64,000 nucleotides of DNA from an uncultured Prochlorococcus sp. (GCA_902625845.1 CACOCT010000004.1:2778-66777); one strand, 5' to 3'. Positions 43,825 through 51,764 are shown, counted from the stretch's first letter. Made by a program: numbers and translations. The notes: generated by a model from the letters alone, not told the origin.

Positions 43825-45645
43825 TTAATATGCAAAATTTATTTTAATTCCAAATTTGTCTTCTCCTCTGAGATTTTGTCCTAAATCCTGAATACCAATA
43901 GCATTAGAGTAATATAAATCTATTGATTTATCAGTACCATAAAGATATCTAAAGGATAATGTATTATTAAATTCAGATTCTTGTTTTAAGAGAGAATTCA
44001 TCTCAGGAATAATTTGTAAATTATCAGCGAGGTTTATATATTTTGATATACCAATAATTCCAAAACTTTCTGCTCCACTAAAGAAATATTTTGGACTAAT
44101 ATTAATCGCTAACCAATTATTTAACCTTACAGTATTTATTAGTTCTGAATAAACATATCCTTGATTAGTATTATCATTTCGTCCAACTGAAGTTCTTATC
44201 GAACTCCAAAAATTATTATTTTTCTGAGGACTAAAAATCATTAATTTGCCTCCTAATCTAAAATTAAGATTATTATTATCAAAATATAAGTTTCTAAGTC
44301 CCCTATTTTTATTTTTTGGGTTTTCAGTATCCTTAAAAGTTCCAATATCAATGAACTCTAACTGGAAAATATTTGAAAGAGAGTATTTATAGGAAAAAAA
44401 GGCATTTCCTCTTGAGTCATAATTTAAACTTCCTTGAGAATTACCAAAATCCTGTATGAGAGCGTTATTAACAGTCAATCCTCCAAAACTCATGAGTTTA
44501 TCTCTAATACTAAGAGGATCTAGAATAGTATCTTTCCCATATGGATTAAAAATTAAATTTGCAGAGTAAAGATTTTTGTTATCCGATGGAATTGTTAGTA
44601 AACCTGTGGAAGGCGTTGATCCATAGGAATTTGAAATTTTTCCTAAAATGCCAATCTTATCATTTAAATCCCAATTCAATCCAAAACTATAGATTGATTT
44701 ATTTGAGTATTTAAGATAGCTATCAAAATAGTTGCTACCAGGTCCTAAAGGATTAGTTATAGATGACAAGAATTTGAGATTATCCGATAAATTAATAACA
44801 ATTCCTGTACCAATATAAAAATTATTTCCATATGAATTTTTACCGACATTTTTTGTGCCTAATTTATCTGGAAGAAAAGTTATTCCAGGCACAAGTATTA
44901 AGGTTAATTTCTTTCCAAATTCTTTTGAAATAGGTAGAGAAAATGCCCCTACTATATTCACGTATTTTTCTTTACCAACTGAATCATCCTTCTCATTAAA
45001 AATACTTTTCGCATTTTTGCCCCCACTGGCATTTCTCCAATATTCTAAAGTTGAGACAGAGGAGACCACCAGTTTTTGTTTTTGATTATCAAATAATTTC
45101 CTCTTATATGAAAGTGCAAAATTTTGCCAGTTATACGGTATGGCTACTCCATCAATGCGATTATATAAATTATCATCCGCTTCAGCAAAATAGAAAGATA
45201 AAATTGAATCATCAGTTATTCCGTAATCGACGAGAAATGATGGATTTTGTTGGCCGGTACCTCCTGAGATACCTCCATCGAAGGAAGATTTCCATTTAAT
45301 AGTTGTTTGAGAATTTCCTTGATATAGAAAATTATTTAAAGGAATAAATGAATCTATATGAGTTAAAACATTTTTGTTAAAAGTTTGTTGTTCATACACA
45401 CTGTAAAAGTCATTTTTATTTTTAAAGTTATAATCACTATTAATTTGATTTGATTCTTCATCAGAGAAATAGCCTTCATCATTTTTATAAGATTTCCATA
45501 TTATTTTATTAATTTTTTTATTATTAATTTTTTCCCACTTTAAAGAATTATCCTCCTCTAAAATTTTTACCTTCTTATTCGCATACACTTTAAATAACGA
45601 TAATGTCTGGAAAATTAATAGAAAAGAAAGAAATAGTTTCATCAT
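43825..45645 (-). CDS. Probable outer-membrane beta-barrel protein, unknown function
   Basis: Signal peptide, alternating aromatic strands, C-terminal GIKINFAY. Confidence 0.7.
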   Translation of the reverse strand: MMKLFLSFLLIFQTLSLFKVYANKKVKILEEDNSLKWEKINNKKINKIIWKSYKNDEGYFSDEESNQINSDYNFKNKNDFYSVYEQQTFNKNVLTHIDSFIPLNNFLYQGNSQTTIKWKSSFDGGISGGTGQQNPSFLVDYGITDDSILSFYFAEADDNLYNRIDGVAIPYNWQNFALSYKRKLFDNQKQKLVVSSVSTLEYWRNASGGKNAKSIFNEKDDSVGKEKYVNIVGAFSLPISKEFGKKLTLILVPGITFLPDKLGTKNVGKNSYGNNFYIGTGIVINLSDNLKFLSSITNPLGPGSNYFDSYLKYSNKSIYSFGLNWDLNDKIGILGKISNSYGSTPSTGLLTIPSDNKNLYSANLIFNPYGKDTILDPLSIRDKLMSFGGLTVNNALIQDFGNSQGSLNYDSRGNAFFSYKYSLSNIFQLEFIDIGTFKDTENPKNKNRGLRNLYFDNNNLNFRLGGKLMIFSPQKNNNFWSSIRTSVGRNDNTNQGYVYSELINTVRLNNWLAINISPKYFFSGAESFGIIGISKYINLADNLQIIPEMNSLLKQESEFNNTLSFRYLYGTDKSIDLYYSNAIGIQDLGQNLRGEDKFGIKINFAY

Positions 45646-45900
45646 TATCTAATTTTAATTTATTCATTCAAACTATTTTAAAAATAATTTAAATTTTAAA
45701 ATAATAAAATTAAATAATATATTATTAACTTATTTTAAAAGCAATAAAAACAAGAAAACTATTATTTTGATAAGACTATAGAACAAAAAGGGAACTTGAA
45801 CCTTTTTACAATATAAATTGCAAAATATTTATAATCTTTCTCCTGGAAAGACTCAATCGCTTTTCCTTACTATTAAATAAAATCTTTAATATTTGAAATT

Positions 45901-46923
45901 TTAATCCCATCCAGCACTTTTCATTAATTTAATCGCATCAGAGTTAAAATCTCCAAGCTGCTGTACAGTAACACTATCAGGATTAAAATCACCAAAGTTT
46001 TGAACAATTGGGTTTTGATTAACTTCTTTTAAAGGGTGTTCAAAGGTTGGAGAAGCAATTCCCTTACTTCCTATTGGTGAAGCTAAAAACTCAAGCAATT
46101 TAATAGCCTCTGATTTATTTTTTGCGTACTTAGCAACTCCTCCAGCACTAATATTCACATGAGCAGGATTTGGAGTAAGAACATTTACTTTTCTTGCAAA
46201 TAATTTATCTCTCCTTCCATTAACTCCTGCAAGCATTCTTGCGACATAATAATGATTAACTATTCCAACTCCACATTTTTTCCTAGCTACAGCTCTAACG
46301 ATTGCGATATCTCCGGGGAAAAATGGTTGTGAAACATTTGAAATCATTCCTTTTAACCAATTTCTTGTTGCTTCTTCACCTTTATTAACTATTTGATTAG
46401 CGACTAACGACTGATTATATGGACTTTTTCTATTTCTCAAGCAAACTTTTCCTTTTAGTGAGGGATCTGCTAAATCGGTATAATCCTTAATCTTATTAAT
46501 ATCGACAACCTTTGGATTAGCAACAATTACTCTTACTCTTCTTGTTAAAGCAAACCACTCATTACCTGGATCTCTTAAGTCTTCTGGAACGTCATTGTTT
46601 AAACTTGAAGAATCAATTGGTTGAAGTAAATTAGCTTTTGCCGCATTAGTTATTCTTGCTGCATCTACTAATAAAATAACATCAGCTTGTGAATTTTCCC
46701 CTTCTCTTTTTAATCTCTCTATAAGAGATATTCCAGCTGCTTCAATTAGCCTTACTTTTATACCTGTTTCTTCGGCGAATCTTTTGAATACAATTCTATC
46801 AGTATTGTAATGTCTTCCTGAGTATACCTTTACCTCTTTTTGAGTAGTGTTTGCAGGAGTATTAAAATTAAATAAAATAGGAAATGTTAAAGCTGAAAAG
46901 AAAAATTTCTTAAGTTTTTTCAC
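45901..46923 (-). CDS. futA: Fe(III) ABC transporter substrate-binding protein (FutA/IdiA)
   Basis: YSGRHY, YNQSL and VNHYY iron-ligand motifs. Confidence 0.93.
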   Translation of the reverse strand: MKKLKKFFFSALTFPILFNFNTPANTTQKEVKVYSGRHYNTDRIVFKRFAEETGIKVRLIEAAGISLIERLKREGENSQADVILLVDAARITNAAKANLLQPIDSSSLNNDVPEDLRDPGNEWFALTRRVRVIVANPKVVDINKIKDYTDLADPSLKGKVCLRNRKSPYNQSLVANQIVNKGEEATRNWLKGMISNVSQPFFPGDIAIVRAVARKKCGVGIVNHYYVARMLAGVNGRRDKLFARKVNVLTPNPAHVNISAGGVAKYAKNKSEAIKLLEFLASPIGSKGIASPTFEHPLKEVNQNPIVQNFGDFNPDSVTVQQLGDFNSDAIKLMKSAGWD

Positions 46924-47025
46924 TTTTAATATTGATATCTATGGTTACTTTATCTCTATCTATAGAAATAGAAATTTAAAAGATATTTTACTTACACATT
47001 AATGTATCATTTCTACCTTTATTAA

Positions 47026-47691
47026 ATGAATTATTTAACTTGTCCTTTACTTCTTGATGAAGAAATTAAAATATTAAAAGCAAATTTGTCTTCCGAGAAT
47101 AGTGATTGGGAAAACGGAAAAAAAACAGCAGGAAGTCTCGCTTCCAAAGTAAAAAATAATTTGCAATTAAATAGAAATTCAGAAATTTCAAAAAATAATA
47201 CTAAATTTATAGTAAAAAAACTTTTAACTAATTCACTTATTAAAAGCTTTGCTCTTCCAAAAAAAATACACGGCATTATGTTTACAAAATCATCAAAGGG
47301 TATGAGATATGGCCGCCATGTCGATAATGCCTATATGTCTTCAGGAAGAGCAGATTTATCATTCTCTATTTTCTTAAATAAAAAAGATTCTTATGGAGGA
47401 GGAGAGTTGGTTGTTGAAAATATAAATACCGAAAACAAATTTAAACTAAATCAAGGGGAAATTATTTTATACCCTAGTACATATTTACATTCAGTAGAGG
47501 AAATAACAAATGGAGAAAGATTAGTATGTGTTGGGTGGATAGAAAGTTATGTTAAAAGTATTGAAGAGAGGGAATATCTTTTTGATATGGATGCTGGAGC
47601 TAGAGGAATACTTGCAAAATATGGGAGGTCAGATGAGTTAGATTTAATTTTCAAATCGTATTCAAACTTGCTGAGAGTTTTAGGCAATTAG
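47026..47691 (+). CDS. piuC: PKHD-type Fe(II)/2-oxoglutarate hydroxylase (PiuC/YbiX family)
   Basis: W..G..TAG.....K.N.Q, YGRHVDN, Y.GGEL and YPST.LH.V.....GER motifs. Confidence 0.9.
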   Translation: MNYLTCPLLLDEEIKILKANLSSENSDWENGKKTAGSLASKVKNNLQLNRNSEISKNNTKFIVKKLLTNSLIKSFALPKKIHGIMFTKSSKGMRYGRHVDNAYMSSGRADLSFSIFLNKKDSYGGGELVVENINTENKFKLNQGEIILYPSTYLHSVEEITNGERLVCVGWIESYVKSIEEREYLFDMDAGARGILAKYGRSDELDLIFKSYSNLLRVLGN

Positions 47692-47763
47692 GAGAATCAT
47701 ATGTTACAACTAATAGATAATTGCAAAAAGAATTACTAATATAATAATAATTTCTAAGTTAAA

Positions 47764-48003
47764 ATGCCTAAAAAAAGTTCTATAGCAATGTTTATCGCTG
47801 CAACGAGTGCGTTAGCTATTTCTTCTACTGATAGTATTGCTATTAAAGCTGGAGAAAATGATTTAGGGGGAACTAAAGAATGGAATACTGATATGCCTTT
47901 GGATGCAGAATTTATACTTGATGAAAAAGCTCAAAAGTTAGCCGATGAAGCTAAAGCATCAAGTACATGTATTCCCATTGGAGAAGGTGAAAACTGCTGG
48001 TAA
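47764..48003 (+). CDS. Small secreted acidic peptide with C-terminal CIPIGEGENCW
   Basis: ATG start, signal-peptide-like N-terminus, strong terminator directly downstream. Confidence 0.78.
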   Translation: MPKKSSIAMFIAATSALAISSTDSIAIKAGENDLGGTKEWNTDMPLDAEFILDEKAQKLADEAKASSTCIPIGEGENCW

Positions 48004-48030
48004 AAAGATTAAAAGTCTTTATTAAAAAAT

Positions 48031-48057
48031 GAGCCATAAAATGGCTCGTTTTTTTTT
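48031..48057 (+). terminator. Intrinsic terminator after the peptide gene
   Basis: GAGCCAT-AAA-ATGGCTC-G-T9. Confidence 0.85.
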
Positions 48058-48062
48058 GGAAT

Positions 48063-48091
48063 AAAAAAAGAGGCCTCAATCTGAGACCTCT
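48063..48091 (-). terminator. Intrinsic terminator of the porin operon
   Basis: Minus strand AGAGGTCTCA-GAT-TGAGGCCTCT followed by a T run. Confidence 0.85.
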
Positions 48092-48115
48092 AGATTATGT
48101 GTAAGAGAATTTAGT

Positions 48116-49318
48116 TTAGAAACTAAATGTAGATTTTAAAATTACACCAGTTTCATCTGCAGTAGATCCACTATTATCTTTACTGTAGATAAGTGGTGTT
48201 ATGGTAATGCCATCAGCATAATTATATGAGTAGAAAACTTCATACATAGTTAATGCATCAGCATTTTCGTTATAAGGTTCTTTAGAACCTATCGCAGCTC
48301 CTAAAGTTCCATCTCCAACTTCATCCCACTGTATACCTATGAAATAGTGTGATGTTTGATCTGAAGTAGTTCCTGCAACAGAATCATCATGATTTGTTTC
48401 AAGCCCAGCACTTATAGATGGGAAATTAGGAAGATCAGGTGAGTAGTAAGCATTGAAACCAACACTCTGGGTATGTCCAACAGCTTTATTTAAAGTGATG
48501 ACACGGTTATTATTTGCATCATGGTTTTCAATATTTGCCCATGATACAGACACACCATAAGTATCTCCTATGTAAGAGAATTGAGCTCCAATAGCATCTG
48601 TGGATTCTTTGCTAACGAAACCTTTGGTTGAATTACCTTGTCCCTCATAAGCGAGAGCGGCAGTAAAACCGTTTCCGAAATCAAAGCTTGCACCTAGCGC
48701 GGAACCAAGTCCTTCATCTACATTTGCAGCTGATATTCCACAATCGGTGAATGTATCTGCTTGAGCTCCATATACACATGCAGTGTTGTAAAGAGCACTA
48801 CCAGCAACTCCATCGCCAAATGCATAGAACGCGGACACTCTATCTCCTAATGGTGTTGTATAGGAAATTGTATCAATAGTAACTTTCTTACTACTATCTG
48901 TCATGTCAAGTTCTGTATAACCTTTAGAGACACCAGCCTGCATAACTACATCTAAAGAATCATCACCTGTAAAACTACTTTGTAGAGCAATTTCATAATC
49001 GAAATTAGCTACATAAGTTTCATCAGCTCCGCCTTCTTCTTTTCCAATAGCGAAATTAGAAGTAAAACTAGCTTTAGTTGTTGCAGAAAAAGTGTCTACA
49101 TCAAAATCTTCACTAGTTTGATTTTGATTAACGCCTTCTCCACCAGCAAGAAGAGGATTCTTACTTGAGAGAGGTTTAAAGGTATCAAGTGTAACTTGTG
49201 CTTGATCTTGAGAGTAACTAGTTACATCTCTAAAATTAGATTCATTAGCATTAGCTGCTAGTGGAGCAAAAAGTCCAAGAGCTGCAGGTGCTAGAAGTAA
49301 TTTCTGAAATAATTTCAT
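48116..49318 (-). CDS. Cyanobacterial porin (Som/OprB-like) lacking the SLH domain
   Basis: MKLFQKLL signal peptide, SSFTGDDSL, YEVFYSY, terminal STFSF; ATG at 49318 preferred. Confidence 0.85.
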   Translation of the reverse strand: MKLFQKLLLAPAALGLFAPLAANANESNFRDVTSYSQDQAQVTLDTFKPLSSKNPLLAGGEGVNQNQTSEDFDVDTFSATTKASFTSNFAIGKEEGGADETYVANFDYEIALQSSFTGDDSLDVVMQAGVSKGYTELDMTDSSKKVTIDTISYTTPLGDRVSAFYAFGDGVAGSALYNTACVYGAQADTFTDCGISAANVDEGLGSALGASFDFGNGFTAALAYEGQGNSTKGFVSKESTDAIGAQFSYIGDTYGVSVSWANIENHDANNNRVITLNKAVGHTQSVGFNAYYSPDLPNFPSISAGLETNHDDSVAGTTSDQTSHYFIGIQWDEVGDGTLGAAIGSKEPYNENADALTMYEVFYSYNYADGITITPLIYSKDNSGSTADETGVILKSTFSF

Positions 49319-49333
49319 TGTACTTCTCACTAA

Positions 49334-50797
49334 TTAGAACTTAAATGTAGTAGCTACGACAAAGCCGAAGATATTATCATTTGTAACTGTAGTGTTTTTA
49401 AGATCGGAACCACCGAAGATACCAGGTGTGATTTCAATAGAATCATTAGGCTTGAAAGAGTAATAAGCTTCCCACATGAATGGTTCGATACTCTTAGTTC
49501 CAGAAGTTGTATGGTTTGAACCTTTAATTGGCTGACCTAAAGCTATACCAATTGTGTCGTCTGCCTGGAACATGTCTGTCCAATTCAAACCAACTGAATA
49601 ACCTTCACCTTCTTTAAATCCATTTGTAACACCTGAGAAAGCAACAGTATCATAACCAATTGATATAGATGGAACTGCTGTTCCTTGATCTTCTGGTCTC
49701 CACCATCCTCTAAGGGCCCAACCTGTAGTGTCTTTACCAGCATTTTTTACTACTGAGTAATAAGGATAACCACCAGTAAATCCATTATTTTGAGTTGTGT
49801 ATGTAGCTGATAAATGATAATTATCACCAGTATAAGCACCCATCACGTTGACTTTGTTTACGTCATCTTCAGTAAATAGTCCTGTTGTAGTGGAGCCTTT
49901 CTTAGAGTTAGCTGTTATAGATGAAGCAAACCCATTGTCACCTACATACTTTAAACCAGCACCAACACTTGTACTTGCACCAAAAGCGATACCATGACCA
50001 CCAAATCTAAATGCCTTCAAAACTTTAGGCTTATATACAGATGGAGTTGCAGCTAACATGTAATAGTTTTCGATCAATGGACCAAAGGTAGCTGTAACTT
50101 TATCTCCAACTGGGAAAGTATACCAAATTTTGTCTACACGAAGAATGTTGTCTTTAGCACTTGTTTCGTTGTGGTAAGTTCCTGGCTTATTACCAAAATT
50201 AGTCTTAGCAAAATCACCACCACCTGTCTTAAGTCTTACATATAAATTGTCATCACCAGTAAAGGTAGTGTTTAAATTCATTTGGTAGACATAAGCAGCA
50301 CCAAAAGCTTCTGTATCTCCGTAAGTATCATCGTTACCATCAACACCACCAAGAAGGAAAACTGCTTTACCGTCTAATGTAGTTGTGTCAGAGAAAGTAC
50401 CTGCTTCGAATTCATTCATTCTAGCTTCGATACCATCAACGCGGCCTCTTAATAATGCAAGTTCACTTGAAAATTCATCAATAAGAGTTCTTTCGATGTT
50501 AGATACTTCAGCTACGTCTCCTAAGCAAGAGTTGACAATAGAAGCAGCTTCAAAACGTGTTAATGCTTTATCGTTTACTTCAATGTCACAACCTCTTGAC
50601 TGTACAAGATCTTTAATGGATTGGTGTGCCCAATCTCCTGGCTGAACATTTAAATAATTGTTTGTAAATCCTGCAGACTTAGAGCTATTGGAATAGCTGT
50701 TCATATCTTCAAGATTGACGTCAGTTGCTTGAGCAGCAAATGGAGCAATCATGCTCGCTGCTGCACCTGCGACCAACAATTGTTGGAAGAGTTTCAT
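49334..50797 (-). CDS. som: Cyanobacterial SLH-domain porin (Som / iron-uptake-porin family)
   Basis: VQPGDWA..., LTRFEAA, coiled coil, FSDTTTLDG, LNTTFTGDD, terminal TTFKF. Confidence 0.92.
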   Translation of the reverse strand: MKLFQQLLVAGAAASMIAPFAAQATDVNLEDMNSYSNSSKSAGFTNNYLNVQPGDWAHQSIKDLVQSRGCDIEVNDKALTRFEAASIVNSCLGDVAEVSNIERTLIDEFSSELALLRGRVDGIEARMNEFEAGTFSDTTTLDGKAVFLLGGVDGNDDTYGDTEAFGAAYVYQMNLNTTFTGDDNLYVRLKTGGGDFAKTNFGNKPGTYHNETSAKDNILRVDKIWYTFPVGDKVTATFGPLIENYYMLAATPSVYKPKVLKAFRFGGHGIAFGASTSVGAGLKYVGDNGFASSITANSKKGSTTTGLFTEDDVNKVNVMGAYTGDNYHLSATYTTQNNGFTGGYPYYSVVKNAGKDTTGWALRGWWRPEDQGTAVPSISIGYDTVAFSGVTNGFKEGEGYSVGLNWTDMFQADDTIGIALGQPIKGSNHTTSGTKSIEPFMWEAYYSFKPNDSIEITPGIFGGSDLKNTTVTNDNIFGFVVATTFKF

Positions 50798-50801
50798 TTT
50801 A

Positions 50802-50810
50802 CCTCACACA
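50802..50810 (-). promoter_or_regulatory. Yfr1-complementary site overlapping the porin RBS
   Basis: mRNA UGUGUGAGG is the exact complement of Yfr1 CCUCACACA (3941-3949). Confidence 0.75.
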
Positions 50811-50884
50811 AAATAACCCTATAAAAGGGGCATTACAACTTTAGTTGGATTATTCAGAAACTGCCAGGATCAAAAGATTCATTA

Positions 50885-50906
50885 ATTTGTATATTTTTTT
50901 ACAAAT
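50885..50906. promoter_or_regulatory. Palindromic operator upstream of the porin operon (NtcA-box-like)
   Basis: ATTTGTA-N8-TACAAAT. Confidence 0.5.
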
Positions 50907-50918
50907 GTCACTTATTGT

Positions 50919-51764
50919 CTAATTTTTCTGTTTTTCAGCCCAAGAGTTAGCAACTTCCTTAGCAAGATTTCTAATCTTTTCAATATAATGGGCTCTGTCT
51001 GTTACGGAGATTACGCCTCTTGCATCAAGCAAATTAAAGCAATGACTACACTTTAAAACAAAGTCTAAAGCTGGGAAGGTTAAATCTTTTGATATTAAAC
51101 TTTCAGCCTCTTTTTTATATAAATCAAAAAGATTTCTAAGGTTATCAGGATTAGATTCTTTAAAGTTAAAGTTACATTGATCTTTTTCGAAATCTAGCCA
51201 TATATCTCCATAAGTATTATTTTTATCCCAATTTAACTCCCATATACTCTCTTTGTTTTGTAAGAACATTGCAATCCTTTCAAGGCCATATGTAATTTCT
51301 ATAGGAATTGGAAAGCAATCAATTCCTCCACATTGCTGAAAATAAGTAAATTGAGTTACTTCCATGCCATCCAACCATACCTCCCAGCCAACTCCCCATG
51401 CTCCCAATGTAGGAGATTCCCAGTTGTCTTCTACAAATCTTATGTCATGATTTTTTGTAATAATTCCAAGTCTTTCTAAAGAACTCAAATATATCTCTTG
51501 GATCTGTTCAGGAGATGGCTTTATAATTACTTGATACTGGTAGTAGTGTTGAGCCCTATTTGGATTCTCACCGAATCTTCCGTCACTAGGCCTTCTGCAT
51601 GGCTCTGCATATGCAGTAGACCACTCTTTTGGACCTATCGCTCTTAAGAAAGTATGAGGGCTCATAGTGCCTGCACCTTTCTCAGTATCGTAAGGTTGCA
51701 TTATCAAGCAACCCTGGGAAGACCAAAATAAATTTAAATTCTGAATTATATCTTGAAAAAACAT
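50919..51764 (-). CDS. glyQ: Glycyl-tRNA synthetase alpha subunit
   Basis: [18 protein letters not shown] and EITYGLER motifs. Confidence 0.97.

Follow-up and report, generated by a model that had tools for sequence, protein, structure and literature searches.

The marine picocyanobacterial gene pep encodes an exported small protein of 79 aa (P0001) that lies directly downstream of the hydroxylase gene piuC, is gained and lost together with it, and is distributed among genomes in a manner complementary to genes for exported proteins carrying Gly-Glu-Gly (GEG) tracts. Pep appears to be the marine-picocyanobacterial, specialised form of a cyanobacteria-wide class of piuC-linked GEG proteins, and we regard it as fairly probable that it is an iron-uptake accessory belonging to this class. 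The explanation that best accounts for the observations overall, and which we think somewhat likelier to hold than to fail, is that of a periplasmic GEG-class mini-protein taking part in Fe(III) uptake on the route from porin to FutA.

The pep gene and its protein

The window, by which we mean the whole 64,000-nucleotide stretch of DNA analysed here, is AT-rich and, judged by its nearest relatives, derives from a high-light Prochlorococcus. The following features were assigned to the pep gene:

47764..48003, plus strand: pep, an exported small protein of 79 aa, supported by its ORF, its translation, 5953 homologues in the protein collection and invariant motifs
47764..47841, plus strand: Sec-type signal peptide, residues 1-26, with a presumed cleavage site; KK in the n-region, then a hydrophobic core, with small residues leading up to the cut
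47866..47892, plus strand: N-terminal conserved block G-G-[LTF]-[KQ]-E-W-[TNS]-T-D, residues 35-43, from the alignment of relatives
47893..47967, plus strand: charged body, constant in length and predicted to contain a helix, from the length count and AF2
47968..48000, plus strand: C-terminal loop C-I-P-I-G-E-G-E-N-C-W, from the constancy of the motif in 129 genes

The N-terminus of pep has a basic n-region and a hydrophobic core (MPKKSSIAMFIAATSALAISSTDSIA), with no lipobox Cys; both the signal and its cleavage site were judged by eye, without a predictor. An N-terminus of this signal type, with basic n-region and hydrophobic core, is conserved in 49 pep genes, and in relatives the signal is kept as M-x-K-x-S-P-x-A-I-F-L-A-A. 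If the cut falls after residue 26, the presumed mature protein has 53 aa, a mass of about 5.75 kDa, 12 acidic and 5 basic residues and a pI of 4.2. AGEND stands directly after the signal, and the only Cys residues (69 and 78) both lie within CIPIGEGENCW. The best match, with 91% protein identity, is in the single-cell assembly AH-287-E15.

An earlier note on this DNA had described a 79-aa ORF with a Sec-like signal and an acidic body, a GEN repeated after the signal (the AGEND above), and a terminal CIPIGEGENCW (47968-48000) holding the sole two Cys, all of which are found in the sequence. The 72-bp gap that it gave between piuC and pep (stop codon of piuC at 47689-47691, ATG of pep 72 bp on) and a terminator-like site where it had assigned pep its own terminator are likewise in place. 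This site consists of a GC hairpin (48031-48047) with a T-run behind it and lies 28 nt beyond the stop. The terminator scan assigns the 48031-48047 stem to the minus strand, and a T-run also follows on the plus strand.

Genes and spacers around pep

The genes and spacers next to pep in the window are:

45901..46923, minus strand: futA/idiA-type periplasmic Fe(III)-binding protein, divergent from piuC; SBP_bac_6/1/11 domains, position kept in 49 loci
47026..47691, plus strand: piuC, PKHD-type Fe(II)/2-oxoglutarate hydroxylase; NF003974 with 304 bits (cut-off 143), PF13640
47692..47763, plus strand: piuC-pep spacer, with a conserved block right after the piuC stop
48031..48057, plus strand: hairpin and T-run resembling an intrinsic terminator, 3' of pep, from the sequence
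48116..49330, minus strand: porin 1, convergent with pep; 26% identity to porin 2 (tblastn)
49334..50797, minus strand: porin 2, iron uptake porin family; NF033921 por_somb with 144 bits (cut-off 100)

PiuC carries no signal peptide. The protein of the window is related to PDB entries 3dkq and 9ghl, and the structures available for the family are 3dkq, 9ghl and 9qn0-9qn4. Scans of the neighbouring genes with Pfam and NCBIfam returned only FutA, PiuC, porin, GlyQ and CobQ, with no family match for porin 1. Among the eight neighbouring ORFs scanned, no leader protease, exporter/transporter or TonB-dependent receptor was found. A 605-aa ORF between cobQ and futA (43825-45645, minus strand) also matched no family; it is 58% identical in G171, a genome that lacks the piuC-pep-porin cassette described below. 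The porins of the compared loci contain no GEG or pep-like conserved motif, and a GGEG in porin 1, considered as an echo of pep, was set aside since porins from other loci do not share it.

In the alignment of seven high-light Prochlorococcus loci, the block conserved after the piuC stop reads GAATCAT..T..TACA. In relatives this block resembles half a Fur box; the copy in the window differs and the pattern search gave results at chance level, and we make no case for Fur control of pep. A promoter-like site at 47721-47748 in the same spacer scored no better than chance. In the divergent futA-piuC spacer (46924-47025), the blocks GTATCTATGGTTACTTTAT and TGTATCATTT are invariant in the seven high-light Prochlorococcus loci and are candidate shared regulatory sites. 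In four marine metatranscriptomes the two porin genes (48116-50800) drew a very large number of contigs with a very high summed depth, against next to no coverage of futA, piuC and pep; these are contigs only, which cannot rank expression.

Selection on pep and its predicted fold

Matches to pep were found in 272 species genomes in the search of species-genome contigs, and only 117 clusters among 1.8 billion cluster representatives matched the pep profile. Of the representatives sampled, 26 match as far as the end of the profile, and all of these have an identical C-terminus, mostly on truncated or chimeric metagenomic ORFs. Thirteen positions are invariant in the 49 pep genes from whole genomes: G35, E39, W40, D43, C69, P71, G73, E74, G75, E76, N77, C78 and W79. 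For the last 11 codons these 49 genes have 45 different DNA versions, using every synonymous codon so that synonymous sites are saturated, while the protein differs only by I/V at two positions; synonymous sites in the N-terminal block GGLKEWTTD vary freely as well. The same three C-termini recur in 80 further Prochlorococcus species genomes, and C-[IV]-P-[IV]-G-E-G-E-N-C-W is kept in 129 of 129 pep genes. Conservation of the Cys loop had been named in the earlier note as a point on which its reading could fail, and apart from I/V the loop is unchanged throughout. Many DNA versions with near-constant residues indicate purifying selection on the protein rather than on the DNA, and pep is thus a genuine gene under strong protein-level selection.

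The small size of the ORF and its lack of a known domain could raise the suspicion that the frame is fortuitous or without function, or that the conservation is that of an RNA or DNA element. This has a negligible probability in view of the thousands of full-length homologues, of amino-acid invariance combined with saturated synonymous sites, and of the lack of any Rfam match within 45000-51500 of the window.

Three metagenomic variants (P0211, P0219 and P0153), all from ENA metagenome contigs of about 1 kb, have the exact pep C-terminus behind divergent, very AT-rich N-terminal parts. One of them is 191 aa long and has an extra domain of about 130 aa.

The spacing between the two conserved blocks of pep is fixed to the residue. 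From six residues before GG to the last residue there are exactly 51 aa in 45 of 45 distinct sequences having the N-terminal block, a count that omits the L048 variant with its (GE)n body, which is without this block. In the same 45 sequences the stretch from GG to the final Trp measures 45 aa, and the residues between the two blocks are variable. Within the body D, A and A are near-invariant at a spacing of i, i+3 and i+10, which would fit one face of a helix. AF2 predicted a helix at positions 26-38 of the mature protein (pLDDT about 79), against an overall pLDDT of 59 for full-length pep and 66 for its mature part, and a short C-terminal hairpin of low confidence that brings the two Cys together on opposite strands. 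At this confidence the hairpin and the disulfide are suggested by the model; we regard a disulfide closing the C-terminal loop as probable. Given the fixed body length and the conserved helix face, we treat pep as a small folded protein and not as a leader-plus-core peptide.

Similarity searches placed pep in no described family: there was no Pfam or NCBIfam match at E <= 0.01, the PDB sequence search gave a chance-level match only (E = 2), and the ESM Atlas returned only pep's own unnamed clusters.

Distribution of pep and order of the locus

Pep is present in 77 of the 201 genomes of its family and was found only in Prochlorococcus and marine Synechococcus; a search of about 370 cyanobacterial genomes of other families gave none. 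The possibility of a cyanophage auxiliary gene was discarded, as tblastn gave no pep match in the phage collection and no relative was confirmed in IMG/VR.

The linkage to piuC, which the earlier note had put forward as a check on homologues, proved constant. Directly upstream of pep and on the same strand, piuC is found in 129 of 129 loci (49 of 49 and 80 of 80), with pep 72-100 bp downstream of it, and each of the 77 pep genomes of the family carries piuC; the genomes compared are kin, so that such counts overstate their independence. The usual order is futA(-), piuC(+), pep(+), porin(-), and it spans high-light Prochlorococcus to a 2.9-Mb Synechococcus. A futA divergent from piuC is part of nearly all loci. 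The convergent porin downstream of pep is present in 49 of 49 loci; of the other loci, 78 extend far enough to hold it, and 76 of these have it. In the genome G171 (1,657,990 bp, same genus, 99% complete) futA adjoins glyQ, and piuC, pep and the porins are all missing, from which it follows that these behave as one cassette, either present or absent. Pep and piuC have also been lost jointly in complete genomes of the genera g5 and g1.

Some loci show traces of rearrangement. The genome G100 has, beside an intact cluster, a stranded fragment with the last 19 pep codons (ending in CIPIGEGENCW) between two porin genes (L049:5001-5033, minus strand), and G098 holds two copies of the whole cluster (L045 and L046), in one of which piuC has decayed with internal stops. 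A pep gene 76% identical to that of the window was found on an 8-kb contig (L162, BOXE01000010.1) of the MAG 'Alphaproteobacteria bacterium CM1_5m.P40'. The set of 80 further loci, in all of which piuC lies upstream of pep, includes this one; its occurrence in an alphaproteobacterial MAG is most likely a binning error and not a transfer.

Exported GEG-tract proteins beside piuC in other cyanobacteria

In cyanobacterial genomes without pep, exported proteins encoded beside piuC carry a GEG tract, (G)GEGGEGGEG, at one terminus. Outside the family of pep, 24 piuC loci drawn from many cyanobacterial families were inspected, and 19 have a GEG-tract gene with a signal or lipobox within about 1.5 kb. 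Among 20 loci of Cyanobium-like members of the pep family of genomes, in which piuC has no adjacent futA, porin or pep, 18 have a small GEG lipoprotein gene head-to-head with piuC, and in the other two genomes the tract is about 4 kb from it. The Cyanobium lipoprotein has a pep-like signal, a lipobox Cys and a low-complexity linker, and ends in GEGGEGGEGGEG. Porin genes flank some piuC-GEG pairs (L056, L059, L088 and L090); for most pairs in other cyanobacteria the sequence inspected contains none.

Near piuC the tract occurs on four unrelated scaffolds:

GEG scaffold 1: lipoproteins (65-104 aa) with the tract at their C-terminal end
GEG scaffold 2: EfeO/imelysin proteins
GEG scaffold 3: PRK06193 histidine-phosphatase-like proteins
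GEG scaffold 4: a helical protein of 260-300 aa with no family match

For the second scaffold, the gene adjoining piuC in L108, L109 and L110 encodes an EfeO/imelysin protein with an N-terminal GEG tract. The histidine-phosphatase-like proteins (L096:2349-3464, minus strand; L102:661-1434, plus strand; L106:680-1435, plus strand) correspond to NF004841, which is named only 'hypothetical protein'; they have a signal and GEG repeats, and their genes adjoin piuC. The exported helical protein combines an N-terminal GEGGEGGEG with a conserved E-P-H-[VI]-G-H-P-[VI]-[DE]-E-L-Y and recurs near piuC in several cyanobacterial families (L087:2233-3057, minus strand; L057:3199-3987, plus strand; L051:5747-6520, plus strand; L114:8059-8955, minus strand), with no Pfam or NCBIfam match.

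The tract is rare in the genomes that contain it. Five genomes of 2.8-5.1 Mb have the tract-coding pattern one to three times each, with one copy beside piuC in five of five; this is the only copy in four of them, and a reversed control pattern had zero matches in the same genomes. In a sample of 251 genomes from the phylum the strict tract pattern was present in 17; piuC occurs in 14 of these, and in 12 the two are neighbours.

Relationship between pep and the GEG class

In the family of pep, piuC is present in 129 of the 201 genomes and absent from 72. The EGGEGGEG-coding tract occurs in 44 of the 201 genomes, and 42 of these 44 have piuC. The genomes divide as follows:

piuC present (129 genomes): pep 77; EGGEGGEG tract 42; both 1
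piuC absent (72 genomes): pep 0; EGGEGGEG tract 2; both 0

The single genome with both pep and tract is a fragmented bin of 400 contigs. In about 40 of the 42 tract-bearing piuC genomes a copy of the tract lies within 4.1 kb of piuC. The same pattern is repeated within single genera: g10 includes two genomes carrying both pep and piuC, two in which piuC is accompanied by the tract and three that lack all of these, and in g47 and g23 piuC and the tract occur only together. This recurrence inside genera means that the pattern does not reflect one inherited state.

Measured against the GEG class, pep has an exported signal, a gene within about 1.5 kb of piuC and an occurrence confined to genomes with piuC, overlapping with the tract in only one of the 44 tract genomes. 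Its own tract is reduced to two steps (G-E-G and G-E-N) with no repeat, often accompanied by A-G-E near the mature N-terminus. In loci L022-L024 a GEGGEG stands shortly before the GGLKEW block, close to where the mature protein presumably begins, and in the L048 variant the whole body is (GE)n. When pep was compared with the Cyanobium GEG lipoproteins by hhalign, only the signal peptide was aligned, with a probability of 88% in a compositionally biased region; common descent of the two is suggested by this alignment, not shown. Further hints of a relationship are the GEGGEG of L022-L024, the (GE)n body of L048, the G-E-G-E-N in the invariant loop and the complementary distribution of pep and tract.

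Proposed role of pep and PiuC

The gene neighbours of pep include an iron uptake porin family member, and its GEG counterparts elsewhere include EfeO-type proteins; Fe-responsive porins have been described in Synechococcus (PMC9723758). An iron-uptake setting, which all the readings of pep weighed in this section have in common, is the probable one as against some unrelated role. Pep would be exported by Sec as an acidic protein of about 5.7 kDa and retained in the periplasm, a location to which its size, the lack of an exporter gene and the nature of its class relatives (lipoproteins and periplasmic iron proteins) all point. There it would act on the route of Fe(III) from porin to FutA. The tract, reduced in pep to G-E-G-E-N, would be presented by a C-terminal hairpin that is closed by a disulfide and has Trp as its last residue, the GGLKEWTTD block and the fixed-length helix would make up the rest of the small fold, and the Glu-Gly carboxylates could bind iron or hand it over at or below the porin.

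A more tentative extension concerns the enzyme. Cytoplasmic PiuC might hydroxylate X-Glu-Gly, or the Pro or Asn of the loop, before export; as PiuC has no signal peptide, any modification of pep has to precede export. That pep is a hydroxylated substrate of PiuC is plausible, at odds clearly short of even, and the reading of pep as a PiuC-modified periplasmic protein is at best equally tentative. The general form of the proposal, in which cyanobacterial PiuC-type hydroxylases act before export on Glu-Gly (or nearby Pro/Asn) and the resulting hydroxy-carboxylates capture Fe(III) entering through porins, is a possibility that we rate a little lower still. If it were true, pep would provide Prochlorococcus with a minimal iron-binding site, made by the ribosome and framed by a disulfide.

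The earlier note had gone further and proposed a ribosomally made metallophore, in which pep, as a RiPP-like precursor, would be hydroxylated by PiuC, released to chelate iron and retaken via the adjacent porin. A short precursor and an adjacent gene for a modifying-type enzyme are indeed found, the latter directly upstream at every one of the 129 loci; the C-terminal core is invariant behind a more variable N-terminal part, the loop is rich in carboxylates, piuC and GEG proteins are strongly associated, and Sec-exported, modified metal-binding peptides are known in the bufferins. However, the mature protein is far beyond the size for passage through general porins, the eight neighbouring ORFs include no dedicated leader protease or exporter and no TonB-dependent receptor, and only porins flank pep where a secreted siderophore would be accompanied by an outer-membrane receptor or export machinery. 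Elsewhere among the cyanobacteria the counterparts linked to piuC are lipoproteins, with a lipid anchor, or EfeO-like proteins of the periplasm, the fixed length and helix face of pep are those of a folded domain, and releasing a peptide of about 50 aa would presumably be costly for a cell in very dilute water. These observations point to the periplasm and make a released metallophore improbable. A role as gate or plug of the adjacent porin, in which the acidic hairpin or the Trp would dock in or below the channel and set its cation selectivity or opening, and no iron would be carried, is comparably improbable: the convergent porin is present in nearly all pep loci, G171 without porins lacks piuC and pep together, as one cassette, and porins flank some piuC-GEG pairs, but most of the other cyanobacterial pairs have no porin in the stretch read and no GEG or matching conserved motif is found in the porins themselves.

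Closer to the periplasmic reading that we favour is the alternative that pep and the GEG proteins bind cations or iron unmodified, piuC being merely a member of the same iron-starvation regulon or acting on another substrate, such as a small molecule that enters by the outer-membrane gate, as suggested for PiuC, CciO and YbiX of proteobacteria. The proteobacterial partner of piuC is a TonB-dependent receptor, with no peptide of this kind; PiuC has been proposed to metabolise the imported ligand (PMC12004943); the piuC, futA, porin and EfeO-like genes cluster generally as iron genes; and PiuC lacks a signal peptide while pep would work outside the cytoplasm. Co-regulation by itself accounts less well for a tie that is to the motif and not to iron genes in general, since tiny lipoproteins with little more than a GEG tail adjoin piuC, four unrelated scaffolds carry the tract when next to piuC, the piuC-side tract is often the sole copy in the genome, and pep or the tract occurs in only 2 of the 72 genomes without piuC. 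Neighbourhood and co-occurrence data are alike for enzyme-substrate pairs and co-regulated partners and cannot separate the two; we consider the unmodified binder possible, with a chance well below even.

Significance

Prochlorococcus and marine Synechococcus are responsible for a large part of the photosynthesis in the oceans and frequently face iron limitation, and their iron uptake, which proceeds without siderophore receptors, is understood only in part. Lying between the genes for FutA, PiuC and an iron porin, pep is an obvious candidate for a missing part of this pathway. As piuC, pep and porin are jointly present or absent between close strains, they may serve as a marker of adaptation to the iron niche.

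The pairing is of wider relevance, as PiuC, YbiX and CciO are widespread iron-regulated oxygenases. The finding that piuC of pep-less cyanobacteria adjoins genes for exported GEG-tract proteins is new here, and the piuC-GEG pairing across cyanobacteria offers a first concrete candidate for a substrate or partner of PiuC. Our literature search found no paper on pep, its C-terminal motif or the piuC-GEG pairing; papers on GEGGEGGEG-type strings dealt with synthetic peptides or unrelated topics and with none of these proteins, and those on piuC, Prochlorococcus and porins mentioned no small peptide. No curated family in Pfam or NCBIfam covers pep or the piuC-GEG pairing. In Pseudomonas, piuC mutations accompany cefiderocol resistance (PMC11878004).

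Comparison with known systems

The activity of PiuC was still called unknown in the literature of 2025, the proposals including metabolism of an imported ligand and a role in the expression of piuA (PMC12004943, PMC11878004). Proteobacterial piuC is paired with TonB-dependent receptors, and suggestions for it are a substrate of the small-molecule kind or a part in regulation (PMC12004943); no substrate is named in the literature searched. The proteobacterial systems of PiuC, YbiX and CciO with PiuA, Fiu and CciT belong to the same hydroxylase family (NF003974/NF003972, PF13640) and likewise encode the enzyme beside an outer-membrane entry gate for iron. The gate is a TonB-dependent receptor there and a porin here, and in the picocyanobacteria an exported small protein is encoded between enzyme and gate, a partner of a kind that is not described for the proteobacterial pairs. 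PiuC also occurs widely without any pep- or GEG-like protein.

Bufferins are Sec-exported ribosomal peptides whose Cys are modified by MNIO enzymes and which bind copper. Pep is similar in being a small ribosomal product with a signal peptide and conserved Cys, in having a candidate modifying enzyme encoded next to it and in the metal-related role proposed for it in the periplasm. The bufferin enzymes are MNIO/DUF692 proteins with a partner, whereas a 2OG/Fe(II) oxygenase is encoded next to pep, and pep has two Cys only, in a disulfide-like arrangement; Pfam and NCBIfam scans of the pep locus returned no bufferin precursor model and no MNIO gene.

The target sites of collagen-type prolyl and lysyl hydroxylases are X-Pro-Gly and X-Lys-Gly, and PiuC belongs to the same PKHD/P4H-like superfamily. 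By analogy, the partners of PiuC display X-Glu-Gly steps, often as literal (GEG)n repeats of a Gly-X-Y-like kind, which might be read as the counterpart of the collagen sites. This family is not known to hydroxylate Glu-Gly.

The EfeO/imelysin proteins of L108-L110 are periplasmic, iron-related, provided with GEG tracts and encoded beside piuC. A protein of this type, IrpA of Synechococcus elongatus, is induced by iron starvation according to a passage of PMC9080828 that cites Nodop et al. 2008. Pep differs from these proteins in having no imelysin domain, and what is common to both is the motif and the piuC neighbourhood only.
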